From an uncultured Candidatus Saccharibacteria bacterium (lineage in GTDB: Bacteria > Patescibacteriota > Minisyncoccia > Phycocordibacterales > Phycocordibacteraceae): a DNA stretch of 64,000 nucleotides. The stretch covers positions 27,892 to 91,891 of the forward strand of contig CAYUQB010000001.1 of the NCBI GenBank assembly GCA_964446735.1, read 5' to 3'. The notes under the pieces are model-generated. The model had not been told where the DNA came from. It saw only the letters and a program-made list of their open reading frames with translations, and did not search any database. This document shows, piece after piece, positions 7,452-51,499 of the stretch. The translations under genes were made by a program, and so were the position numbers. How positions within the stretch are numbered: position 1 is the stretch's first letter; each line of letters begins with the position of its first letter.

Positions 7452-7766
7452 TCAGGAAAGGAGCGGGTGGGCGACGTTCGTGCGAAAGCCCAAGAAGAGG
7501 AGCAGGAGCGAACGCAGGTCATATGCCTGTTTCCGTGCGCTCTCAGCGCCGTGTGCGACGATCGACTTCTTGATCCGCATGCCATTGTCGTCGAGGCGCT
7601 CTATGTCGAGTGTACCCCTACAACGACGTTGGAGCTTATCGAGCGCAACGATCGGCACGTTCGCACCGATGCCATCGGGGAACGTCCCCTCGAGCGTATA
7701 GCCCCATCCAGGAGGTACGTCCTCGTCCTTTCTGAAGGTTATGGTGCCGTGTAAGAACCGAATCAT
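7452..7766 (-). CDS. hypothetical protein
   Basis: ATG (MIRFLHG) preceded by a strong GGAGG SD at 6-nt spacing; co-directional with truB and the yqeY-like gene; the overlapping plus-strand ORF 7407..7754 has no SD. Confidence 0.35.
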   Translation of the reverse strand: MIRFLHGTITFRKDEDVPPGWGYTLEGTFPDGIGANVPIVALDKLQRRCRGTLDIERLDDNGMRIKKSIVAHGAESARKQAYDLRSLLLLFLGFRTNVAHPLLS

Positions 7767-7852
7767 GTGGAGCCTCCGAATCAATGAGGGCCCCACCATC
7801 ACTGGAGGCCAGTATGCCACACGGCTATGAAAATTGAAGGAAGGTCAGTCTC

Positions 7853-9711: not shown

Positions 9712-10161
9712 ATGAGGAGAGATCACATGACTACGATTCGTCGAATGATGGGCGTTGCCATCCTGTTCATCTGCATCCTGTTCATCCCTCTCACCTTTCT
9801 CCTGCCCGACAGTGGGTCAGGCGACGGGTCTGAGGGAGGACCGGCCACCTACATCGCCGCCGCCGCCGTCATGGTCCTCGTATGGGTCGTCGGCTCGGCC
9901 TTCTACGGCTGGAAGCTGCTCAGGGAGGGCAGGCCGCGACGGCTACTGGCCGTCACCCTGGTAGCCCTCGAGGCCATCATGGTGTACCTGGTGTACATGG
10001 ACACGCAGGTGCGTCCGCACTACGAGCCCGCCCCGTGGCCGGGATATCTCGAGCGCTACGGCCTGATGCTCTTCCGTGGCATGCCCATCTTGATGCTTCT
10101 CGACCTGTTCCTGCCGCCCTGGTCGTTCAGACCGGGGCGTAGGGTGCCTGGCAGTACGTAG
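9712..10161 (+). CDS. hypothetical integral membrane protein (GC-rich island)
   Basis: 149 aa with 3-4 predicted TM helices; about 65% GC, clearly above its neighbours. Confidence 0.5.
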   Translation: MRRDHMTTIRRMMGVAILFICILFIPLTFLLPDSGSGDGSEGGPATYIAAAAVMVLVWVVGSAFYGWKLLREGRPRRLLAVTLVALEAIMVYLVYMDTQVRPHYEPAPWPGYLERYGLMLFRGMPILMLLDLFLPPWSFRPGRRVPGST

Positions 10162-16692: not shown

Positions 16693-17283
16693 CTAGGCCA
16701 GTCGGTCGATGACCCGGGTGAGGTCGTGCTTCTGCCAGCGAGCCTCACCGATCGCGCGCGTGACGACTGGTCCAGAGAAGATGGCGCCGGCGAGGAGCAA
16801 AGTTACGATCTTGAGGCCACTAACGACCGCATCACGAGAAAGTGTTCCATCGCCACCCAGAACCAGCATGACCACGATGACCAGGAAGCCGAGTACGACC
16901 GAGCCGAAGTTCCAGTCGAACGACGCTTTGAAGCGCATCGAATCGTGCCAGGCAGGCCCGGCGACTTCCTTGAGACGTCGCTTGAAGGCGGGATAGTCGG
17001 CGGTTGTATAGACGGCGATCGCCGGTTTGTCGCCGTACCAGTGGTCGGTCCAGCTACCCACGAAGTAGAACTCGTGATCGTACTTGGAGACGAGCACGTT
17101 CATCGTCATCTGTTGTTTGGTGAGAGGTATTCCCCACACCTGCAGCTTGTGCCCGTTACGAAGACGTTCTCCCGCCTCTGTCCAGATCGCAGCATCGGTG
17201 CAGGCCAGGATGTCGGCTTGGCGGCTGACTGCCACCTTGGTGAGCACCTGGTAGGTATCATCGCTAATATAAATGGGGGTCAT
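16693..17283 (-). CDS. hypothetical protein: soluble N-terminal domain plus two C-terminal TM helices (GC-rich orphan)
   Basis: ATG (MTPIYISDD) preceded by GGGAAAcgggcc; about 130-aa soluble domain, then two hydrophobic helices (VVLGFLVIVVMLVLGG / IVTLLLAGAIFSGPVV); about 60% GC, inserted between ctpA and rplI. Confidence 0.5.
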   Translation of the reverse strand: MTPIYISDDTYQVLTKVAVSRQADILACTDAAIWTEAGERLRNGHKLQVWGIPLTKQQMTMNVLVSKYDHEFYFVGSWTDHWYGDKPAIAVYTTADYPAFKRRLKEVAGPAWHDSMRFKASFDWNFGSVVLGFLVIVVMLVLGGDGTLSRDAVVSGLKIVTLLLAGAIFSGPVVTRAIGEARWQKHDLTRVIDRLA

Positions 17284-17405: not shown

Positions 17406-17831
17406 ATGAAAGTCGTACTACTGAAAGATGTTCGTGATATGGGCCGTGCGCACTCGGTGCATGAAGTATCCGATGGGCACGCCCTCAATTTTCTTATTCC
17501 TCGCAAACTCGCCGTGTTGGCGACGTCGCAGAACCTTAAGCTTGCAGAGACAAAGCAAAAGCAGGTACTAGAGAAGCGCGCTCTTGATCACACGCTCGTT
17601 GCGGAACGTCTCGCCGCACTTGCAGAAGAAAAGATCATGATTACTAAGAAAGCCAACGAGCAGGGTCATCTCTATGACGGTGTAGACGCAGCTGAAATCG
17701 CAGAAGCTGCAGCACTTCCTGAAGATGCCATCAAACTTGAGAAGTCTATTAAGGAGCTGGGTACACACGAGATACCAGTCATGGTAGGGGAGAGCTTCGG
17801 AAAGATTGTTATCGAAATCGTAGCTGAGTAA
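17406..17831 (+). CDS. rplI: 50S ribosomal protein L9
   Basis: 141 aa; MKVVLLKDV...GHALNFLIP N-terminal signature of L9. Confidence 0.9.
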   Translation: MKVVLLKDVRDMGRAHSVHEVSDGHALNFLIPRKLAVLATSQNLKLAETKQKQVLEKRALDHTLVAERLAALAEEKIMITKKANEQGHLYDGVDAAEIAEAAALPEDAIKLEKSIKELGTHEIPVMVGESFGKIVIEIVAE

Positions 17832-17849
17832 TACACGTAAAAGGGGAAA

Positions 17850-17884
17850 GGGGGCGACGCACGATTCGTGCGTCGCCCCCTTTG
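17850..17884 (+). terminator. rho-independent terminator after rplI
   Basis: GGGGGCGACGCACG-att-CGTGCGTCGCCCCC, a 14-bp perfect stem, then TTTG. Confidence 0.7.
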
Positions 17885-17906: not shown

Positions 17907-18611
17907 TTATGTCAGGTAGCCGTATTCTGGGTGTTCCAGAATGGTCACCGGTACCGGTCGCACCCGCTCCATTGATCCCGTGCTCCAGCGCGTGGCGAGC
18001 ACAATGAAGCCTGCCAGAAGGGCGAGGAGCGCGACCGGCACGAGCCCGCCACGATCGCCAATGATTGGATAGCTCACACCGACGATGTCGGGAGCTGCGG
18101 GAGCCGTGCTCAACCGCTCTGCAGGCTCGACCGAATCGGGAGCCGTCGTCGGGACATCGCTCGCGCGACCGGTGGTAGCGCTCTGCGCCCCTGGTGTCGC
18201 CGAAAGCCAGGTGCCAGAAGGCGACGCATCAGCGTTCACCTGGAGCGGTGGCTCTTTGAGCTGGGCAGTGTCGACTGGGGGACGGTGCGGGACCAGCGTA
18301 GGCGCTGGTATGTCCGCGGTCTCCGCGAGAACACGCGCAACGGCCGCGTTCCCACTGATGCCTTCTGCCTCGAACTCGGTGAGTCGGGCTTTGCAGTACC
18401 CCCAGAAGGTGCCCGCGGCGCGTACGCCGGGAGGCCACTTCGCAGAGAAGCGCGTGGCCTCTTCGTGGGTCAGGTTCTTCTGGGCGAGGAGCTGGTTGGT
18501 GCAGTCGGCAGTCGTCTGATTCCAGACCCGCGCCTCGGCAGGTGCCGAAACGATGATAGCGAGGAATAGCGTCGCGAGGACGATGCTGAGTGAACGGATG
18601 GAACGTGACAT
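17907..18611 (-). CDS. secreted/membrane-anchored hypothetical protein (paralog 1)
   Basis: Signal peptide (LSIVLATLFLAIIVSAPAEA), a Cys-containing domain (about 70 aa), Pro/Ala/Thr-rich linker, C-terminal TM anchor; about 65% GC; GAGGG SD. Confidence 0.5.
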   Translation of the reverse strand: MSRSIRSLSIVLATLFLAIIVSAPAEARVWNQTTADCTNQLLAQKNLTHEEATRFSAKWPPGVRAAGTFWGYCKARLTEFEAEGISGNAAVARVLAETADIPAPTLVPHRPPVDTAQLKEPPLQVNADASPSGTWLSATPGAQSATTGRASDVPTTAPDSVEPAERLSTAPAAPDIVGVSYPIIGDRGGLVPVALLALLAGFIVLATRWSTGSMERVRPVPVTILEHPEYGYLT

Positions 18612-18699
18612 GTGAAAACCCTCGGCTGGAAACGTTCAGAGCGGTCATCGCTGACCGCTCACTGTCGACACAATGACATTTTTCTTACAAAAATCAAAT

Positions 18700-18734
18700 A
18701 CTGTAAAGAAGGACGGCGCTCCAGGGCGCCGTCA
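18700..18734 (-). terminator. rho-independent terminator after paralog 2
   Basis: On the minus strand, GACGGCGC-cctgga-GCGCCGTC then CTTCTTTAC...TTTTT. Confidence 0.55.
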
Positions 18735-18766
18735 GTTCGAATTCAGCTAGAGGTGCGCGGTCAGAC

Positions 18767-19870
18767 CTACGTCTTGCCGTGTCCTCGAGCTCCGCCCCAT
18801 ATGGCTTGGCGGGGTGCAGCGTAGGCTGGGGCCACGTAGACGGGCACCGTCTGTGCGACGGCCACCGCGTGCTCGGCTTCAGCCGCGTGTCGCTCCCGGT
18901 TCTCGGCCAGGATGCGTCGCAGCCTCTTTTGTTCGTGCGCTGCGGCCTGCTCTGCGGACCACTCCGGAATGACGAGAGTGCTATGCCCGTCGTCGTGGAT
19001 GGTCGGCTGTACTGGCGGCTCTTCTTCGACGCTGTCGTTGGCGGGCTCAGGTTCGACGATCATCTTTGCGCGCGGGATGACCATCATATCGACGATCATG
19101 TACACGACCGCGAGCGCAAACCCGATCACGCCCAGGTAGGGCAGGTAGTAGTGCGTCAGGAACGGCAGGCAGTACTCCGTCAGGACGGTGGTGGCGACGC
19201 CACCAAGGAACCAGACGATGATGCCCAGCATGTCGAACGAGAAGCGCGGATCCACGCGGACGTCCGACTGCGAATTGGTGATGCCGTTGCTTCGACCGAG
19301 GGTATCCTCGGGAGCGGCAGCGGGAGCCGTGCTCGACCGCAGGGTGGGCTCGACCAGAATGGGAGCCGGTTGATGCGGTGGCTTGGCAGCGGGCCGAGCC
19401 GGCACATCGTGCTTCACCGGAGGCGAAGCAGCAGGTTGTGCGGCCGGAAGCCGCGGGAGATCCTTGCGGACCGGGGTCGAAATCAGAACGGCCGAACCGC
19501 GTGCGTGCGTGGCCGGTTCCGAGCGATCTGCCGAGGCCGAAACCACTGCAGGCGTGCCGTTCCGATCAGCCGCGTGCGCGGCCTCCTTCGGGGGCAGGAC
19601 CTGTGCGAGGGCCGCTTCAGGTGAGACGCCCCTGGCTTCTAGGGCCTCGAGCTTTTGTCGACACCCTCCCCAGATACCGCGCCAGTCGCTGACGATGTTG
19701 TGCCAGCCGGCGTTGAGGGCCTGCGGATTGAAGTTCGGATTCTCCTTCTTGCCGACGTCGATCCAGGCATCCTGGCAGATGTCGACGTGGTGGTTGTAGA
19801 TCTTCGCCTCCACCAGGGTGGGGCATGCGAGGAATAGGAACGCCACGAGGGCGAGCAACGAACGTTGCAT
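18767..19870 (-). CDS. secreted/membrane-anchored hypothetical protein (paralog 2)
   Basis: Likely start MQRSLLALVAFLFLA (signal peptide) preceded by GGGAG SD; N-terminal domain homologous to paralog 1 (WGGCRQKLEALEARGVSPEAALAQVL vs WGYCKARLTEFEAEGISGNAAVARVL); Pro-rich linker, TM helix, charged cytoplasmic tail. Confidence 0.5.
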   Translation of the reverse strand: MQRSLLALVAFLFLACPTLVEAKIYNHHVDICQDAWIDVGKKENPNFNPQALNAGWHNIVSDWRGIWGGCRQKLEALEARGVSPEAALAQVLPPKEAAHAADRNGTPAVVSASADRSEPATHARGSAVLISTPVRKDLPRLPAAQPAASPPVKHDVPARPAAKPPHQPAPILVEPTLRSSTAPAAAPEDTLGRSNGITNSQSDVRVDPRFSFDMLGIIVWFLGGVATTVLTEYCLPFLTHYYLPYLGVIGFALAVVYMIVDMMVIPRAKMIVEPEPANDSVEEEPPVQPTIHDDGHSTLVIPEWSAEQAAAHEQKRLRRILAENRERHAAEAEHAVAVAQTVPVYVAPAYAAPRQAIWGGARGHGKT

Positions 19871-20012
19871 GTGAGGTGCTCCCTCTAGCTGAATGTTATA
19901 GAGCAATCGGGCTGTGGGGCCCTTGCCCAGAGTGATATGACCATATTTTTGGGAGTCTTGCAATGTACGCGAGAACGGCGCCTTGTGGGCGCCGTCTGCA
20001 AATCAAGAACAT

Positions 20013-20465
20013 CTATCCGAGCGAACGGGTCGAGCGGTACGCGCTCTTGCGTCGCGGCTTGAGGTGTCTCAGAAACTGAAAGACCACCCAGAGGGAGACG
20101 AGCCCCCACCCGCTCCAGCCGAGGGCATACTGCGCCTTCAGCCAGTTGTCCTTCTGTTCGGCCAGACGCTTGTACTCGTCGCGTGCGGCCGTCACCTCGG
20201 CTACCTGCCCCTCGAGGTCCGCGATCCGTTCGGCGGCTTTCCGAAGCGGCTCGTTTGCCGCATCCACCCGGTCACAGAGCGCCTGGCCGATGTCGCCGGG
20301 TCGAATAGTGACAGGCTGGCCGTCGAGCGTGAAGGTCTTTCCGTCTGGAAGTCTGGTGGGGTTGAGTCCCACTGCTCTCAGGCGATCCGCACACGTTCCG
20401 TCATCGGCTCGCGCAGGTGTCCCGAGGGACAGTACCAGTAGCCCACCAATCAAGACTCTCCGCAT
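20013..20465 (-). CDS. secreted coiled-coil protein with C-terminal TM anchor
   Basis: Signal peptide (GGLLVLSLGTPARA), two Cys, coiled-coil region (LEGQVAEVTAARDEYKRLAEQKDNWLKAQ), C-terminal hydrophobic helix; GC-rich. Confidence 0.45.
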   Translation of the reverse strand: MRRVLIGGLLVLSLGTPARADDGTCADRLRAVGLNPTRLPDGKTFTLDGQPVTIRPGDIGQALCDRVDAANEPLRKAAERIADLEGQVAEVTAARDEYKRLAEQKDNWLKAQYALGWSGWGLVSLWVVFQFLRHLKPRRKSAYRSTRSLG

Positions 20466-20530: not shown

Positions 20531-20556
20531 AAAAACGCCGGCGTAAAGCCGGCGGA
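20531..20556 (-). terminator. rho-independent terminator after rpmA
   Basis: On the minus strand, CGCCGGC-ttta-GCCGGCG followed by TTTTT. Confidence 0.7.
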
Positions 20557-20560
20557 TTCC

Positions 20561-20839
20561 TTAGGCAGCGACGACGTCGACTACCTTTTTTCGACGAACC
20601 CTGCCGTCAAAATTAGTCTTACGCATCTCGCGGAAGGCAACTTTGCCTACGATCATCGAGTAGAGGGTGTGGTCCTTTCCAACCTTCACATTCTTTCCGG
20701 GCTCGATCTTGGTACCGCGCTGACGCACGATGACCATGCCGGGACGAGCAGGAGCACCGTCAGCGAGCTTCACCCCGAGGTATTTCGGGTTTGAAGTATT
20801 AAGATTTTTTGCTGATCCACCAGCTTTAGTACTTGCCAT
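20561..20839 (-). CDS. rpmA: 50S ribosomal protein L27
   Basis: 92 aa; MASTKAGGSAKN...RQRGTK signature of L27. Confidence 0.9.
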   Translation of the reverse strand: MASTKAGGSAKNLNTSNPKYLGVKLADGAPARPGMVIVRQRGTKIEPGKNVKVGKDHTLYSMIVGKVAFREMRKTNFDGRVRRKKVVDVVAA

Positions 20840-20863: not shown

Positions 20864-21283
20864 ATGACTATAGCAGAACTGCGGGAACGAAGCAATACAG
20901 CCCTTTCTCGTGTTCCCATGGACGTTTTGGTGGTCGGAGTGGTTATCCTCTCCTCGAGCGCTTCCTTTGGACTGGGGTATCTCACGGGAAGGGAGGGGGA
21001 GGAGAAGGACCGAGGATTCTGGATCGAGGACGTATCTACCACCTCGGCTAAAACCCTCCCGGCTGCAGCTATTGTTGCTCCACCTATACCGGTCGTTACC
21101 CCAGGGACTATCCTTACACCCAAGGAAGGGAAGTACGTTGCATCTAAATCAGGGAAGAAGTACTACCTTCCGAGCTGTTCTGGTGCCAAGCGTATAAAGG
21201 AGGAGAACAAGGTGTGGTTTGCGACTCTTGAGGCCGCACAGGCATCTGGCCGCACCCCTGCCGCTAACTGTCCCGGCCTATGA
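20864..21283 (+). CDS. membrane-anchored protein with a C-terminal Ada-type zinc-binding-like domain
   Basis: N-terminal TM (VLVVGVVILSSSASFGLGYL); C-terminal YYLPSCSGAKRIKEENKVWFATLEAAQASGRTPAANC resembles the Ada Zn-binding module (YHxxxC...KRIKxENRxxF...EAxxAGxRPCKxC). Confidence 0.5.
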   Translation: MTIAELRERSNTALSRVPMDVLVVGVVILSSSASFGLGYLTGREGEEKDRGFWIEDVSTTSAKTLPAAAIVAPPIPVVTPGTILTPKEGKYVASKSGKKYYLPSCSGAKRIKEENKVWFATLEAAQASGRTPAANCPGL

Positions 21284-22707: not shown

Positions 22708-22971
22708 TCAGCTATAGCGGAACGCCGAACTGATGACGCCGGGCTGCTCGATGGCTCGCTTGGAGAGCTCCTCCTCCATCCCTTCCGGCACGGAGACGTA
22801 GGAGACGATCTCGCTGCCGTTGTAGCCTTCGCCGAACGTCCCGCCGATCGCCTCCACAGCGCCCTGGCACACCTCGAGCGGTGTGCCTTTCTCAAACTGG
22901 ATCACCACCCAGCCGGGAACATGGCGTCCTCCGTGATGCACGGGAGGCGGAACATTTTTGATGTCGGTCAT
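22708..22971 (-). CDS. small protein of unknown function, 'MTDIK' family (copy B)
   Basis: 87 aa; ATGACCGACATCAAA start preceded by GGAGGAaattgtc; GC-rich; shares a beta-alpha-beta-like core with the ORF at 6360..6569. Confidence 0.5.
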   Translation of the reverse strand: MTDIKNVPPPVHHGGRHVPGWVVIQFEKGTPLEVCQGAVEAIGGTFGEGYNGSEIVSYVSVPEGMEEELSKRAIEQPGVISSAFRYS

Positions 22972-27687: not shown

Positions 27688-28044
27688 TCATGACCAGATT
27701 CTCCCACTATTCGCGTTTGTGCCGTTTGCAACGGCGATGAGCAGCGAGCTGTGCGGATCCAGTGGCAGGCGCAGCTTTTCGGGGTCATAGAAGACCCACA
27801 CCGGTGCCTCCAGCGCGTCGGCCACCTGTTGGAGCCGAGCGGCGTAGACACGGTTTGCGGCGCACTCCCACTTTTGCACTTGCTGCGAGCGCACACCGAC
27901 ACGCGCGCCGAGTTCGATTTGCGACATCCCTCTCCAGCGCCTGATGCGCCGGATACGAATGCCGATCGCCACGTCGTCGTGGGTGATGGACCTCTTACTC
28001 TCCGAAACCGCTACGTGCGGCGCGACCAAAGCGGTCATGGACAT
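27688..28044 (-). CDS. XRE-family helix-turn-helix transcriptional regulator
   Basis: HTH_XRE signature IRIRRIRRWRGMSQIELGARVGVRSQQVQKWE; GC-rich relative to flanking genes. Confidence 0.6.
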   Translation of the reverse strand: MSMTALVAPHVAVSESKRSITHDDVAIGIRIRRIRRWRGMSQIELGARVGVRSQQVQKWECAANRVYAARLQQVADALEAPVWVFYDPEKLRLPLDPHSSLLIAVANGTNANSGRIWS

Positions 28045-47400: not shown

Positions 47401-47736
47401 CTAGTCCTCTGCGAGGAGGACAGCGAAAGTATTTGGCCCTTCACGCACCGTCATGAAGACGCCATGAAAGTCCACGTCGTGCGCCACTTGCGCTGAGATG
47501 ATGTCATAGGTGTGGTGGCCAGTTGACCTGGCCAGACTGGCCTCCAGCTCAGCGATTTCTTCGTTGTACTGGCGTCGGCGATAGCAAGCCGATTCGTATT
47601 CGCTTATCGCCGACTTGTCGTCTGCCAGTACGTTCGGTTCGAGCAGCCTGATCTGGGCTTCCAGAACTTGGAGCTCGGACCGACAAAGGGCAAGGCGTTC
47701 TGAGTCGCCTTTTAGCACCAATTTGCGTTCGTCCAT
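47401..47736 (-). CDS. hypothetical coiled-coil protein
   Basis: Start MDERKLV preceded by GGGAGcggacc; the N-terminal 114 codons of the listed ORF 47401..48078 look like read-through. Confidence 0.4.
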   Translation of the reverse strand: MDERKLVLKGDSERLALCRSELQVLEAQIRLLEPNVLADDKSAISEYESACYRRRQYNEEIAELEASLARSTGHHTYDIISAQVAHDVDFHGVFMTVREGPNTFAVLLAED

Positions 47737-47829
47737 GGTCCGCTCCCACTTGAAGATCGGTACCGGTACCGTGCCGGCATGATTCGTAGAACCTATCACT
47801 AAGGTCCTAGGTTGCCAACTAAAGGAACC

Positions 47830-47850
47830 AAGATCCCTATTCGGGATCTT
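47830..47850. promoter_or_regulatory. perfect 8-5-8 inverted repeat AAGATCCC-tattc-GGGATCTT (candidate operator or recombination site)
   Basis: Read directly; lies between the coiled-coil gene and the recombinase locus; a palindrome GGTACCGGTACC (about 47773) and a tandem AGTCCCCCA x2 (about 47918..47937) are nearby. Confidence 0.3.
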
Positions 47851-48080
47851 TCGTGTGCACCGTGGCTTGAGTCTTATCGAACTTCTGTAGGTGTATGTGT
47901 TGTAGAGAAGTCCCCCAAGTCCCCCAAGTCCACCACTCGAAGATTGCAGCGGTGTCGACTGAACACGGGCGGCTTCCCTCAGCCCGTGTTCAGCCACAAG
48001 ACATCCGCTGCAAATACTTGTTCCGGCTTGGCACATTCGTCCGCCTACCGTAGGGCCAGGAATGGCGCGAGCATGCACGC

Positions 48081-48254
48081 ATGCCCGAGCTACCCGGCGA
48101 TCTTCTCCTCGACCGCTACCTACCCGATGCGACGAATGAGGAACGTAGTGAGGCGCGTCAAAACCTCTGTGCCTTCGCCAAAGCTATGAAGAACCTCGGC
48201 GCAGAGCATCGGAACTACCGCTGGCAGATCGAGGCGCTGTCCGATGACGTATGA
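48081..48254 (+). CDS. small ORF (57 aa) translationally coupled to the serine recombinase
   Basis: MPELPGDLLLDRYLPDATNEERSEARQNLCAFAKAMKNLGAEHRNYRWQIEALSDDV; its stop overlaps the recombinase start as ATGA; below the 60-aa cutoff of the ORF track; weak SD. Confidence 0.35.
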   Translation: MPELPGDLLLDRYLPDATNEERSEARQNLCAFAKAMKNLGAEHRNYRWQIEALSDDV

Positions 48255-49660
48255 AGCCACACCTCGCCTACATCCGGGTGTCGACCGTCAGACAGGGTGA
48301 GCAGAACTCGTCACTGGCTGAGCAGCGGGCGTCCATCACGGCATACGCGCAGCGCCACAACCTCCAAATCGGCGAGTGGTTTGAGGAAATGGAGACCGCC
48401 GCGAAGAACGGCCGGCTCCAGTTCAATCGGATGATGACCCTGCTGCGTACCAAGCGGCACGGTGGCCTGCTTGTTCACAAGATCGACCGCAGCGCGCGCA
48501 ACCTCAAGGACTGGGCTAGGCTCGGTGAGCTCATCGATGAGGGCATCCCGGTACACTTCACGCATGAGAGCCTCGACCTCTCTTCCCGCGGCGGTCGACT
48601 GGCAGCCGACATCCAGGCGGTCGTGGCTGCCGACTTCATCCGGAACCTGCGCGATGAGGTGAAGAAGGGCATGTACGGGCGCTTGAAGCAGGGTTTCTAT
48701 CCCCTGCCCGCGCCGCCCGGCTACCGGGACCATGGCTCCGCAAAGCATAAGACCATCGACCCATTGAAGGGTCCCATCGTCCGCTTCGCCTTCGAGGGAT
48801 ATGCGACCGCCAACTACACGCTCGACACCATGCGAGAGGAACTCTGGCACCGGGGGCTCCGTGGGCCGAACGACAAGCCGCTCTCAAAGAACTCGATCGC
48901 AAGCACGCTCCACAACCCCTTCTACTACGGCGTGATCAAGATCCGCCGGAGTGGTGAGACCTTCATCGGTGGCCACGAGCCTCTCATTACGAAGAAGCTC
49001 TACGACCAGGTCCAGGAAGTCCTCAGTGGTCGGGCGGCGCTCAGAACGACCCACCACGACTTTGCGTACCGCACGCTCATCAGGTGCGAGCACTGCAAGA
49101 ATTTCGTCGTGGGTGAACGACAAAAGGGTCACGTCTATTACCGCTGCCACACCAAGGGCTGTCATCAGCGATCCCTCCGGGAGGATAGGATCGAGCAAAC
49201 CATCTTCGACACCCTCGCCAACCTACAGATGCCGGATGGCGAACTGATGGACCTCCGCGCCTGCGCGAAGCACTACGAGACCGAAGCACGGAAGGCCCGC
49301 AGGGAGACGGTCACCAAAGCTGAGCAGGAGCTGTTCCTCGTTGGCACCCGGCTCGCGAAGCTGACTGACGGGTACCTCGATGGCGAGATCGAGAGCGGTC
49401 TCTTCCGCGAGCGACAGACTGCCCTCGTCGAGCGTCAGGCGGAGCTGCGGCAGATCGCTGAGGAGAAGCCGGGCGATGCGGAGCTCGATCAGACCGCTGA
49501 AATGCTGAGCCTTGTGCTCGAGGCGCGCGCGAAATTCGCCGTCGCGACACCAGAGGAAAAGCGGCACCTGCTTCAGGCACTGGCGAGCGAGCTGACCGCG
49601 CGAGAGGGCGAGTTGGTACTCACGTTGCGGAGCCCGTTTGATCGAATCGCAACGACTTAG
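48251..49660 (+). CDS. large serine recombinase (resolvase/invertase catalytic domain + recombinase domain + zinc ribbon + coiled coil)
   Basis: Catalytic YIRVSTVRQ (Ser nucleophile), resolvase domain, Cys cluster CEHC...YYRCHTKGC, C-terminal coiled coil; 469 aa; about 62% GC. Confidence 0.85.
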   Translation: MKPHLAYIRVSTVRQGEQNSSLAEQRASITAYAQRHNLQIGEWFEEMETAAKNGRLQFNRMMTLLRTKRHGGLLVHKIDRSARNLKDWARLGELIDEGIPVHFTHESLDLSSRGGRLAADIQAVVAADFIRNLRDEVKKGMYGRLKQGFYPLPAPPGYRDHGSAKHKTIDPLKGPIVRFAFEGYATANYTLDTMREELWHRGLRGPNDKPLSKNSIASTLHNPFYYGVIKIRRSGETFIGGHEPLITKKLYDQVQEVLSGRAALRTTHHDFAYRTLIRCEHCKNFVVGERQKGHVYYRCHTKGCHQRSLREDRIEQTIFDTLANLQMPDGELMDLRACAKHYETEARKARRETVTKAEQELFLVGTRLAKLTDGYLDGEIESGLFRERQTALVERQAELRQIAEEKPGDAELDQTAEMLSLVLEARAKFAVATPEEKRHLLQALASELTAREGELVLTLRSPFDRIATT

Positions 49661-50640
49661 GGAATGAGCTCCCACGGACTGATGGGTGACCAACCATCAC
49701 GCGGAAGATTGTAGTGGTTATACACTGAGCCGTGACGGCATGTGCTGTAGACCATCGCGCCAGCTTTCTGCAAAGCGCGCACAACTGCGCGTCGAGGATG
49801 CTTTGTCGTGCCAGGCGAGGAGATGTAGGCAACTTCTGGAGCAAGGTGGGTTATTAACGCGCGATCAAGATTGCGGCGGCTCCCGTGATGCGGCACATCC
49901 AGCCAGTTCAACTTACTGATGTCCTTCACTGTCATCGCACCCCGCAATGCGCGTTTTCCGGCGTCTCCGGTGAACAAGTATTTTCGGCCATGCCCTTCAA
50001 TCAAGATAATGATACTGCTGTTGTTCACTGGCTTGGTATCTATAGATGGGTCGTCGATTATCGAAGTTCCAGGGATCGCTGCGACCGCTGCATCGGTTGT
50101 ATCGGAGTGGAACCACGCGCTAACGACTTCGTCGTTTAGCCAGATATCCCGAAACAGTCCTTCGCTTGGCCCAAGTACGTATACCGACCATCCGCCCCAG
50201 TCATAAATCGAATCAGGGCTTGCAAATAAGGTGTGCACGCTTGTCCCCTGCGCCTGCGCTGCGCTCTGTAGTGCGTCCATCCTTTCGAAGGCGGAGGTGA
50301 ACACACTGTATTCATCGCTTGTGAGCGCCGTTCGGGCCTTTTTTAACAAAAGAGGTTCGGAAATGACTCCTCTCGGGTCGTTCAGTATCAGGTGAGCAAC
50401 GTTATGGTTCTCAAGCAACGACACAAGACCGCCGATATGATCAGTGTCGGGGTGGGTGCTTACTACAATATCAACGCCGTTGTCGTGATATTGGCTGACA
50501 TGATTCAACAGAGGCTCGCTGTTCGCCGCGGCACCTCCGTCGATTACGATTACCCTGCTGTCTCCGCTTTCGTCTCGAAGTTCGACTACGTGCGAGTCAC
50601 CCTTGCCGACGTCTATCATTGTTATTCCGAGCTGCGACAT
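49657..50640 (-). CDS. metallo-beta-lactamase fold protein (ComEC C-terminal domain-like)
   Basis: HPDTDHIGG (HxHxDH), later WLDVPHHGS, typical of the ComEC/Rec2 MBL module; standalone 327 aa. Confidence 0.7.
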   Translation of the reverse strand: MSQLGITMIDVGKGDSHVVELRDESGDSRVIVIDGGAAANSEPLLNHVSQYHDNGVDIVVSTHPDTDHIGGLVSLLENHNVAHLILNDPRGVISEPLLLKKARTALTSDEYSVFTSAFERMDALQSAAQAQGTSVHTLFASPDSIYDWGGWSVYVLGPSEGLFRDIWLNDEVVSAWFHSDTTDAAVAAIPGTSIIDDPSIDTKPVNNSSIIILIEGHGRKYLFTGDAGKRALRGAMTVKDISKLNWLDVPHHGSRRNLDRALITHLAPEVAYISSPGTTKHPRRAVVRALQKAGAMVYSTCRHGSVYNHYNLPRDGWSPISPWELIP

Positions 50641-50642
50641 AA

Positions 50643-51239
50643 TTAGAGATTTGCGCTTTTAATCAAGGTGTAGGATTGGAGAACCTTCGATCGGTTGTAT
50701 CCAAAGAACCTGGCCCTCCGGTGCAGGAACAAATACGTAAAGAGCACACAAATAGCCGTGGATATGAATATCCACGGCTCATATGCTTGCGTGAAGATTA
50801 GATACGCAGCAAGAAAATCGACTTCGAGACCGAAGGCAACAGCCCATGCTCGGTAGAGACTGTACTGCGCGTTCAGGGCGGCAATCTGGCCCGATGCGTC
50901 CTTGGACAGCACGAGCAAGTAGCAGTGGTTATACACGTCTCGATGCGAAATTTGCCCTAAGGATAGATGCTCCCGTACCACCTCTAAAGTGGCGATTTCC
51001 TCATCTGTATAGGTATCCTTATTCTCCGCTGTGAGAATATTTGAAAGCGACTGGCAGACATGTCCTACGAAATAGGCAGCCAAGATCCACAATATGGCGG
51101 TATCGAGAGTGAACGCCGGCAGCCGCTCAGGAAACAACAACGCAGCGTCCACGTAGACGAGTGCAAGCGCAATTGCGCCGCTCGTCAGGAACGCAACTTG
51201 GTCGTAGAGGCTGAATTTAGAGAGAAATGTGTTTTCCAT
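50643..51239 (-). CDS. hypothetical integral membrane protein
   Basis: 198 aa with N- and C-terminal TM segments; 2 nt upstream of the MBL gene. Confidence 0.4.
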   Translation of the reverse strand: MENTFLSKFSLYDQVAFLTSGAIALALVYVDAALLFPERLPAFTLDTAILWILAAYFVGHVCQSLSNILTAENKDTYTDEEIATLEVVREHLSLGQISHRDVYNHCYLLVLSKDASGQIAALNAQYSLYRAWAVAFGLEVDFLAAYLIFTQAYEPWIFISTAICVLFTYLFLHRRARFFGYNRSKVLQSYTLIKSANL

Positions 51240-51320
51240 GCCGTCACGTGGGCATGACTACAGCATACTCCTCTTCTTCATGAAGGCTAGATCTGGTCGA
51301 AGACCTCCGCCTCCGGCATA

Positions 51321-51360
51321 GTTCGAACTCTCTACAGTAGACCGCAGGTGCGGTTCGAAC
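51321..51360. promoter_or_regulatory. twin GTTCGAAC palindromes 24 nt apart (candidate operator)
   Basis: GTTCGAAC at 51321..51328 and 51353..51360, about 80-120 nt upstream of the membrane/MBL operon start; I could not fold the region into a tRNA cloverleaf. Confidence 0.3.
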
Positions 51361-51366
51361 CCACGC

Positions 51367-51405
51367 AAAAGGCCTCGGAATCATTGAGTCCGAGGCCTTT
51401 TGCTC
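51367..51405. terminator. bidirectional rho-independent terminator
   Basis: AAAA-GGCCTCGGA-atcattgag-TCCGAGGCC-TTTT, a 9-bp perfect stem flanked by an A-run and a T-run; it lies downstream of the tRNA-Tyr 3' end. Confidence 0.65.
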
Positions 51406-51413
51406 CTGTCTTT

Positions 51414-51499
51414 TGGTGCGCCGGGAGGGATTCGAACCCCCGTAGGATAAATCCGCTTGGTTTACAGCCAAGTGCAATTGACCACTCTGCCACCGACGC
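51414..51499 (-). tRNA. tRNA-Tyr (anticodon GUA), encoded CCA
   Basis: Minus-strand cloverleaf: acceptor GCGTCGG/CCGGCGC (one G-U pair), anticodon stem CTTGG/CCAAG with loop CTGTAAA, long variable arm, T-arm GGGGG-TTCGAAT-CCCTC, ...ACCA 3' end; 86 nt. Confidence 0.8.

Follow-up and report, generated by a model that had tools for sequence, protein, structure and literature searches.

Three genes between rplI and rpmA

The stretch of DNA analysed here (the window) comprises 64,000 nucleotides of contig CAYUQB010000001.1 (assembly GCA_964446735.1) from an uncultured Candidatus Saccharibacteria bacterium. Between the genes for ribosomal proteins L9 (rplI) and L27 (rpmA) it carries three minus-strand genes, which we designate A, B and C and which are the subject of this study (Table 1). 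A previous reading of the window, made from its letters alone (the sequence-only reading), had described them as a GC-rich insert of three separately terminated genes for secreted proteins, two of them paralogous. The gene limits that it gave agree with the open reading frames (ORFs) and with a separate, independent gene call made on a Logan contig of identical sequence, which yields the same three products; the 367-residue B is also present in public gene calls. The guanine-plus-cytosine (GC) content is 0.64-0.65 in each gene, close to the 65% claimed, as compared with about 53% in the window and its backbone, and the 1-kb windows at 18-20 kb reach 0.636 and 0.633. At third codon positions (GC3), the values are 0.72, 0.77 and 0.73 for A, B and C versus 0.54 for the flanking conserved genes.

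Each gene has its own ribosome-binding site and its own hairpin, as the sequence-only reading had it. The ATGs of A, B and C are preceded, at a distance of 5-8 nt (8 nt in the case of B), by the Shine-Dalgarno sequences GAGGG, GAGGGAG and GGGAGGGA, respectively. The inverted repeat between the convergent rplI and A is likely a bidirectional terminator common to both genes. The hairpin after C has no T-run; it was read from the sequence and was not called by the terminator scan. The hairpins after B and C have the stem GACGGCGCC...GGCGCCGT in common, so that gene punctuation may have been copied together with the genes. Rfam searches over 16.5-21.5 kb detected no RNA family.

Table 1. Features of the rplI-rpmA interval. 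Positions are those of the window; residue ranges of protein parts are given with the feature.
Feature	Position	Strand	Basis and remarks
rplI (ribosomal protein L9)	17406-17831	+	Conserved left flank; Pfam Ribosomal_L9_N/C on the gene call of the identical Logan contig; homologs in 80/80 syntenic loci
Perfect 18-nt inverted repeat	17847-17883		Between convergent rplI and A; 100% complementary, 1 nt between arms; repeat search
Gene A	17907-18611	-	ORF, 234 residues
A, membrane anchor (187-211)	17979-18053	-	Hydropathy, composition; followed by a short basic tail
A, Pro/Ala/Thr/Ser linker (101-186)	18054-18311	-	Hydropathy, composition
52-nt repeat, pre-anchor linker of A	18094-18145; copy in B 19317-19368		79% identity; encodes VEP..R.STAPAA.P
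A, two-Cys head (28-100)	18312-18530	-	Hydropathy, profile
A, signal peptide (1-27)	18531-18611	-	Hydropathy
B-A intergenic control region	18678-18733	-	Terminator hairpin of B 18712-18733, then AT-rich promoter-like site 18678-18707; consensus matches only
Gene B	18767-19870	-	ORF, 367 residues from ATG at 19870
B, anchor region (210-269)	19064-19243	-	Hydropathy, composition
B, Pro/Ala-rich linker (94-209)	19244-19591	-	Hydropathy, composition
B, two-Cys head (23-93)	19592-19804	-	Hydropathy, BLASTP to A
B, signal peptide (1-22)	19805-19870	-	Hydropathy
Hairpin after C, ACGGCGCC-CACAA-GGCGCCGT	19975-19995	-	Read from sequence
Gene C	20013-20465	-	ORF, 150 residues
C, Trp-rich anchor (114-132)	20070-20126	-	AlphaFold2, hydropathy; followed by a basic tail
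C, long helix/coiled coil (~58-113)		-	AlphaFold2, hydropathy
C, putative permuted-LysM head (~21-70)	20256-20405	-	Profile, AlphaFold2
C, signal peptide (1-20)	20406-20465	-	Hydropathy
rpmA terminator	20536-20554	-	Promoter/terminator scan
rpmA (ribosomal protein L27)	20561-20839	-	Conserved right flank; Pfam Ribosomal_L27 on the Logan gene call; homologs in 77 loci

A, B and C are predicted exported, membrane-anchored paralogs

Hydropathy and the residues at the presumptive cleavage sites support the prediction, made already by the sequence-only reading, that A, B and C are exported and anchored at their C-termini. The N-terminal segment of each protein is basic and then hydrophobic and ends in an AxA motif (AEA/R, VEA/K and ARA/D in A, B and C, as read from the sequence). 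The anchor region of B consists of two adjacent hydrophobic segments (residues 210-232 and 241-269), followed by an acidic and then helical tail of about 98 residues. The anchor of C is weaker (mean Kyte-Doolittle value 1.38) and precedes the sequence RHLKPRRK with its six basic residues. The linkers that join head and anchor in A (86 residues) and B (116 residues) contain 51-52% Pro, Ala, Thr and Ser, which bears out their earlier description as Pro/Ala/Thr-rich. In C, for which a coiled coil had been proposed, AlphaFold2 predicts a single helix of about 60 residues, in support of that proposal. Pfam and NCBIfam contain no family that matches A, B or C, and searches of the same two collections found no recognizable cytoplasmic domain, kinases included, in any of them.

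BLASTP significantly aligns the heads of A and B, the two Cys residues included, over 72 residues at 29% identity (E = 2e-7). In addition to the 52-nt repeat, A and B share a 22-nt DNA repeat of 77% identity in the signal-peptide region, and the two repeats are collinear with the head similarity, as would be expected of the traces left by a diverged tandem duplication. We built a profile from 20 mature heads, all of them from other genomes (see below), and scored it against 7032 ORFs. It retrieved A over residues 31-79 with E = 7.3e-6 and 24.7 bits, the two Cys falling in register, and C with E = 2.4e-4 (hairpin core); the next ORF had E = 0.32. C was also linked by tblastn to a protein of a related genome (P0007 in L082; 37% identity over 59 residues, E = 9e-8). 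Thus, the pair recognized by the sequence-only reading stands, and its restriction of the shared domain to two genes does not, since C is a paralog as well. A, B and C are three paralogs with one two-Cys N-terminal domain, two of them in a stalk form and one in a coiled-coil form. A MAFFT alignment of A, B, C and P0003 (see below) was discarded, as it matched the second Cys in A and B to the first one in C.

A family of such proteins resides in the rplI-rpmA gap of related genomes

An L9 scan with one genome per species gave 80 loci, and about 10 kb on each side of rplI were compared. The loci keep the block cysS-corA-S41 protease-rplI-rpmA-orf139-RNase T-LOG, and the public assemblies closest to the window carry the label 'Parcubacteria group bacterium' or 'Candidatus Paceibacterota'. 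Seventeen of the 80 have a gene or a pair of genes in the rplI-rpmA gap, on the rpmA strand and built like those of the window. Together with L082 and L083, this brings to 19 the other related Parcubacteria assemblies or contigs in which the family occupies this gap, on the rpmA strand throughout; a further member, P0006, adjoins a fragment of rplI. The heads of the relatives follow the pattern C...(L/I)(S/T)..(E/D)A(R).L..G, then a hairpin, then G(D)..W..C. All 22 strong matches of the full-family profile lie inside the gap, as do later finds from outside the training set (P0007 and its 159-residue neighbour in L082, with P0006 beside the rplI fragment). A stalk form, like A and B, is paired with a coiled-coil form, like C, in L009, L016, L027 and L082.

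Hydropathy over 23 members shows the succession of signal peptide or lipobox, head, stalk or coiled coil, and anchor, with some members having a lipobox and no anchor instead. A lipobox-like L-x-x-C follows the signal sequence in the A/B-like relatives of L024, L027 (11317-11907), L029 and L030, and the C-terminal anchor is absent in L024, L027 (11317-11907) and L030. The family head thus seems to have two modes of tethering, as a lipoprotein in some members and through a transmembrane segment in others.

Word-indexed searches of 5.8 billion clustered proteins with B and A as queries returned only the queries themselves, and the same kind of search with the 23-member alignment returned one partial relative, P0003. 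An exhaustive search with a weak four-sequence profile (A, B, C and P0003) recovered A, B, C, P0006, P0007 and P0004, the last of which we rejected as a repeat-protein artefact. P0003 is a partial C-like member on a 1235-bp NCBI contig labelled Nitrospirota; this contig is probably mis-binned, as every other member lies on a Parcubacteria-type contig. The head family is unannotated, no curated family in Pfam or NCBIfam covering A, B or C.

The scarcity of close homologs in the clustered proteins, together with the tendency of GC-rich DNA to yield long antisense ORFs, is what could be said for regarding A, B and C as chance open frames in a non-coding or decaying insert. We give this next to no credence. 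The domain, signal peptide and anchor recur in 26 proteins that related genomes encode at this locus, GC3 exceeds GC at first codon positions (GC1), which exceeds that at second positions (GC2), in the called frames, and none of the three genes lacks a Shine-Dalgarno sequence or a hairpin.

The family head resembles a LysM domain in permuted order

The canonical LysM domain has the order β1-α1-α2-β2. When the 23 heads were scanned against Pfam, LysM (PF01476, gathering score 20.9 bits) was the sole family under E = 0.01, and two heads matched it. The head from L024 scored 23.7 bits and was the only one of the 23 above the gathering score; the second head reached 12.7 bits. The two parts of the LysM profile were found in the reverse of their usual places: the N-terminal part of the L024 head corresponded to profile positions 18-42, and the C-terminal part of the L027 head to positions 2-15. 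Placing the second half of the heads first improved the best LysM E value from 4.5e-5 to 2.2e-6, while the number of matched members was still two.

Profile-profile comparison gave the same picture. As a reference, we used eight LysM sequences, all eight of which Pfam confirmed as LysM. In hhalign, the re-permuted family aligned with this set over 46 of 49 columns with 95% probability and a score of 34.8. By contrast, the family in its native order aligned over 20 columns, corresponding to the β1-α1 half only, with a score of 28.0. When the native family was compared with an artificial LysM-LysM tandem, the alignment spanned the junction with scores of 41.7-42.5. Column-shuffle nulls had a mean of 7 and maxima of 16.2 and 12.7. 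The score was still 27.0 after the three most LysM-like heads had been dropped, and both subsets of the family scored separately (27.6 for the C-like heads, with a null maximum of 13.6, and 28.2 for the A/B-like heads). In a rotation scan of the untrimmed alignment, the aligned length rose to as much as 44 columns with the cut at the hairpin and the score was no higher; the re-permutation of the trimmed alignment and the tandem comparison are the cleaner forms of this test.

A profile search of solved structures gave LysM proteins as the best matches, leucine-rich repeats aside, at marginal E values of 0.016-0.28; they included the junction of the two LysM domains of YaaH. The designed leucine-rich repeats that headed this search were rejected as an artefact, being sums of stretches of about 3 bits on the motif L..Ls...l..LP.G. 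Among NCBIfam models, the best match was a weak one of a single family head to YneA (E = 0.0033), a LysM membrane protein. AlphaFold2 modelled residues 20-125 of C from a one-sequence alignment as helix, strand, strand and long helix (predicted local distance difference test score, pLDDT, 81.1), which corresponds to the order α2-β2-β1-α1. Many members keep the 'GD' and N-(L/I)-(S/T) motifs, which are partly retained in C (GD) and in A (NLT, G-TFW).

Of the two Cys residues, one is found where the first helix starts and the other within the W-x-x-C helix, that is, at sites flanking the canonical α1-α2 loop. This canonical pair is present in 17 of the 23 heads, A, B and C among them; in four others the pair is shifted, and two heads are free of Cys. 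The number is never odd. The pattern of zero or two is as a disulfide would predict, and a putative disulfide may therefore join the two helices in the family heads.

Both halves of the LysM profile are present in the family when permutation is allowed, and we hold with fairly high confidence that the head, at the level of the family, is a LysM homolog in the permuted order α2-β2-β1-α1. Since this order differs from that of LysM by circular permutation, A, B and C are not filed as ordinary LysM members; neither the model of C nor that of the head of A (see below) has the order β-α-α-β. The third paralog, the locus-bound family and the proposed LysM ancestry had all escaped the sequence-only reading.

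That reading had instead noted a faint resemblance of the head to Rpf/transglycosylase-like domains, which would make the proteins wall-cleaving or resuscitation-type factors with a degenerate domain of this kind. What the two have in common is a Trp-Gly-x-Cys motif in a secreted protein, within a WG.C..KLG resemblance. Searches with A, B and C (E <= 1) and with the 23 heads (E <= 10) brought up no Rpf or transglycosylase family, that is, none at any threshold tried; the catalytic motif is absent, and the significant signals are those to LysM. The W-x-x-C helix aligns with LysM helix α1 (GDTLW.IA) instead, which accounts for the motif. We consider a degenerate Rpf-like domain very improbable.

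The heads of A, B and C themselves

Several results obtained with the window's own proteins speak against a permuted LysM. Pfam LysM did not match A, B or C at E <= 1. A and B alone scored 9.9 against LysM in hhalign, within the null, and permuted C alone scored 14.8 over 44 columns, only marginally above a null maximum of 13.5 in 150 shuffles. AlphaFold2 modelled residues 26-100 of A, from a two-sequence alignment, as five helices without strands (pLDDT 81.9); the models of both C and A were built from alignments of only one or two sequences. B scored only 3.2 bits on the non-window profile and is placed in the family through A by BLASTP; it reached 40.5 bits on the full-family profile, but it was among the training sequences of that profile.

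In A and B, the hairpin is shorter by 7-13 residues and a C-terminal helix has been added, and their heads may for this reason no longer be canonical. A retains the motifs N-L-T and V-R-A-A-G-T-F-W-G-Y-C. As a second partial repeat, the additional helix of A and B scored at most 0.4 bits, and this idea was dropped. Thus, with moderate confidence, C is probably a full permuted LysM, and A and B appear to be derived members whose fold and ligand are uncertain and whose assignment to LysM we make with low confidence.

These results raise the question of whether the Cys head is a truly new domain in a horizontally acquired adhesin island, its likeness to LysM being due to chance occurrence of short motifs (GD..W, L..G) in a small α/β unit. 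The absence of A, B and C from Pfam and NCBIfam families, the lack of a LysM signal from A and B alone, structure searches that depend on element order and were uninformative, and the foreign composition of a cassette missing from the nearest relatives are all compatible with such an origin. A chance likeness does not explain, however, why the LysM scores of the re-permuted family and of the tandem comparison lie far outside the null maxima, why the full length of LysM is covered only in permuted order or across a tandem junction, why the signal arises in two disjoint subsets of the family or why one relative exceeds the Pfam threshold with its halves swapped. Homologs at the same locus in related genomes likewise argue against arbitrary foreign DNA. 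We therefore judge a new domain to be distinctly unlikely and favor the permuted LysM.

Distribution and origin of the cassette

Of the relatives in which both flanking genes are present, 46 of 76 have a gap of 8-270 bp and 30 of 76 one of 0.4-2.3 kb; where the family is present, a gap holds one to three of its genes. A neighbour-joining tree of S41 protease, CysS and L9 places the window together with L002, L003, L004 and L010. The gap is empty in L003 (166 bp), L004 (213 bp) and L010 (56 bp), and the L002 contig stops just past rplI. Parsimony on this tree gives absence as the root state with at least seven gains or losses, and the family-bearing genomes fall into at least seven patches.

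Composition also sets the cassette apart. Among the genes up to about 10 kb from rplI, GC3 is 0.47-0.57 (rplU, 0.67) where syntenic homologs exist and 0.71-0.82 where they do not, except for a doubtful 115-residue ORF (0.47). The shift in A, B and C is seen at silent sites and goes beyond Pro and Ala codons. Across the family, 20 of 23 genes exceed the GC3 of their own backbone, by 0.12 on average, and the two genes of L016, the locus with the highest backbone GC3, lie below it. The elevated GC3 of A, B and C supports recent acquisition or intense recombination.

The insert of foreign composition proposed by the sequence-only reading is thus upheld as far as silent sites are concerned, and the empty gaps of the relatives agree with it: the region is not lineage-wide with the same composition. 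It fails as arbitrary foreign DNA. The presence of the family in the same gap of relatives, with the gap empty in most, makes it a patchy hotspot cassette instead. Neither a mobility gene nor a flanking direct repeat marks the cassette, no recombinase is encoded within 25 kb, and the nearest tRNA genes are 6.2 and 51.4 kb away. The missing marks count against acquisition; transfer, if any, would have proceeded through homologous recombination of the conserved flanks. The restriction of the family to this locus is judged from about 10 kb on each side of rplI in the relatives. Most likely, the cassette was imported here and A and B were then duplicated.

We also considered vertical descent of a cassette ancestral to the clade, with many independent losses and with GC3 raised by GC-biased gene conversion or by the codon use of the family at a locus prone to recombination. 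The family has a GC3 of about 0.56-0.86 whatever the backbone (0.40-0.77) and falls below the backbone in L016; the locus and strand are constant in every case, and mobility genes, tRNA genes and flanking repeats are lacking, all of which would suit such a history. Vertical descent sits less well with the absence at the root and the number of changes given by parsimony, and with the four nearest relatives, which have no family gene (three empty gaps, and the L002 contig end). The gene order also differs, being rpmA-C-B-A-rplI here versus A/B-like and then C-like in four other genomes, and unrelated orphans nearby and a serine recombinase at 48 kb have equally high GC3. On balance, we regard descent from an ancestral cassette as somewhat unlikely and prefer import through the flanks.

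Other genes are found at the same slot elsewhere. Peptidase_M15_4 (D-Ala-D-Ala carboxypeptidase; 171-183 residues, E = 7.8e-22) fills the gap on the rplI strand in L049, L054, L055, L065 and L071, a filler that belongs to the clade with a 147-residue L9; a cyclophilin is found in L081 and a 712-residue coiled-coil protein in L045. A cell-wall theme may therefore recur at the rplI-rpmA slot. The gap between the S41 protease gene and rplI is variable too. In the window it holds an orphan of 196 residues with C-terminal hydrophobic segments (16693-17283, minus strand) that has no homolog in any locus, in L082 an unrelated 229-residue ORF, and in L004, L026 and L039 an extra 2-5 kb of DNA.

Small orphan genes at 7452-7820(-), 9712-10161(+), 16693-17283(-), 22708-22971(-) and 27688-28044(-) have GC3 values of 0.71-0.82 versus 0.47-0.57 in conserved neighbours and zero or one homolog across the 80 loci; 27688-28044 encodes an HTH_3 domain and the rest match no Pfam family. 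In this genome, accessory genes interspersed with core genes seem to be recognizable by their high GC3. A large serine recombinase (48251-49660; Resolvase, Recombinase and Zn_ribbon_recom domains; GC3 0.80) adjoins a gene for a metallo-beta-lactamase fold (49657-50640) and tRNA-Tyr (51414-51499), and the region 47401-51499 may be an integrated element, GC-rich like the cassette. On the other side of rpmA, a 139-residue gene product with an N-terminal hydrophobic segment (20864-21283, plus strand; beside rpmA in 69 loci) has a C-terminal Cys-rich motif with weak matches to Ada_Zn_binding (E = 0.004) and to the NCBIfam 'sunset' domain (E = 0.005).

Proposed model

Taken together, we think it rather probable that A, B and C are three paralogous, separately terminated genes for exported and anchored proteins with heads derived from a permuted LysM, carried by an accessory cassette at a recombination hotspot. 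The proteins would probably be secreted through Sec and cleaved after the AxA motif. The C-terminal hydrophobic anchor would then tether each protein, with its basic or acidic tail in the cytoplasm, and the N-terminal head would be kept off the membrane by the 86-116-residue Pro/Ala/Thr/Ser stalk in A and B and by the helix of about 60 residues in C, which is probably an oligomerizing coiled coil. The head itself would derive from LysM by circular permutation, with the new chain ends in the former α1-α2 loop and tied, as the co-occurrence of the Cys residues suggests, by a disulfide from the start of the first helix to the W-x-x-C helix. C would have kept the whole permuted domain, and A and B would stem from a tandem duplication.

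By homology, the heads probably bind a polymer containing N-acetylglucosamine (GlcNAc), either in the cell's own wall or in the wall of a host or partner cell; our confidence in this glycan-binding function is low to moderate. An adhesion or host-interaction role, which the sequence-only reading had already suggested, remains a reasonable guess, made more specific by the link to LysM. The long stalks, rapid divergence and variation in copy number would fit an interaction surface under diversifying pressure. As for the cassette, silent-site composition and absence from the nearest relatives suggest that it was acquired by recombination between the conserved flanks, and the gap would act as a hotspot for the exchange or loss of homologous cassettes in the same way. 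Going one step further, we tentatively propose that the head is a disulfide-stapled natural α2-β2-β1-α1 permutant of LysM, in a fast-evolving stalked family that is swapped at the rplI-rpmA slot and could serve as a variable glycan-binding adhesin directed at the wall of a host or partner organism.

Parcubacteria are uncultured bacteria with reduced genomes that are thought to live attached to other cells, and their attachment molecules are largely unknown. If our proposal is true, a hypervariable stalked head of the glycan-binding type at a recombination hotspot would be a concrete candidate for attachment in this group. About 26 'hypothetical proteins' would gain a domain assignment, and the rplI-rpmA gap would be flagged as a variable slot in the clade.

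Comparison with known systems

LysM, a model system for protein folding, ranks among the carbohydrate-binding modules with the widest distribution. Compared with the LysM domains of E. coli MltD, B. subtilis YkuD and LytE and L. lactis AcmA, the family motif 'v.l.kGDt.W..C' resembles the β1-α1 motif 'y.V.kGDTLw.IA', and 'l.enGls...ar.L..G..i.v' resembles the α2-β2 motif 'l...N.Ls...L..Gq.L.i'. The size of about 45-55 residues and the extracytoplasmic location are common to both. Unlike in LysM, the halves are swapped in the family (α2-β2-β1-α1), a conserved Cys pair would bridge the helices, and A and B lack the hairpin.

Membrane-tethered LysM proteins, such as those of the YneA type and the LysM receptor-like proteins of plants, combine an extracytoplasmic LysM-type head with a single anchor and a cytoplasmic tail, and the family follows the same logic of head, anchor and tail. 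Its head differs in being N-terminal, behind a predicted cleaved signal peptide, and in being placed on a Pro/Ala stalk or a coiled coil; moreover, A, B and C have neither a kinase nor another recognizable cytoplasmic domain.

The spore protein YaaH (PDB 4S3K) has two LysM domains in tandem, and the family profile spans the junction from the end of the first to the start of the second. This is the footprint expected if the permutant arose by duplication and subsequent loss of the outer halves. In contrast to YaaH, the family has no flanking half-domains: the mature N-terminus lies a few residues before the first helix, and the stalk or coiled coil follows straight after the last one.

The closest parallel to the proposed topology is an engineered one. 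A folding study of 2008 in the Journal of Molecular Biology built an α2-β2-β1-α1 permutant of the LysM domain of E. coli MltD by opening the chain between the two helices and linking the original termini into a β-hairpin (PMC2441773). This permutant was insoluble and was judged to be unfolded (PMC2441773), so the topology is not trivially viable, which must be set against our proposal. The same study points out that natural insertions between the LysM helices are disulfide cross-linked or Pro-rich (PMC2441773). Among the papers that our full-text search covered, there was no report of a natural permuted LysM. The family shares the topology of the MltD permutant as we propose it, but it has a Cys pair at the chain break, and we suggest that this natural pair may make the permuted topology viable. 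If so, a natural stapled permutant could be compared directly with the engineered one that does not fold, and the contact between the two helices could thereby be tested as a folding nucleus.

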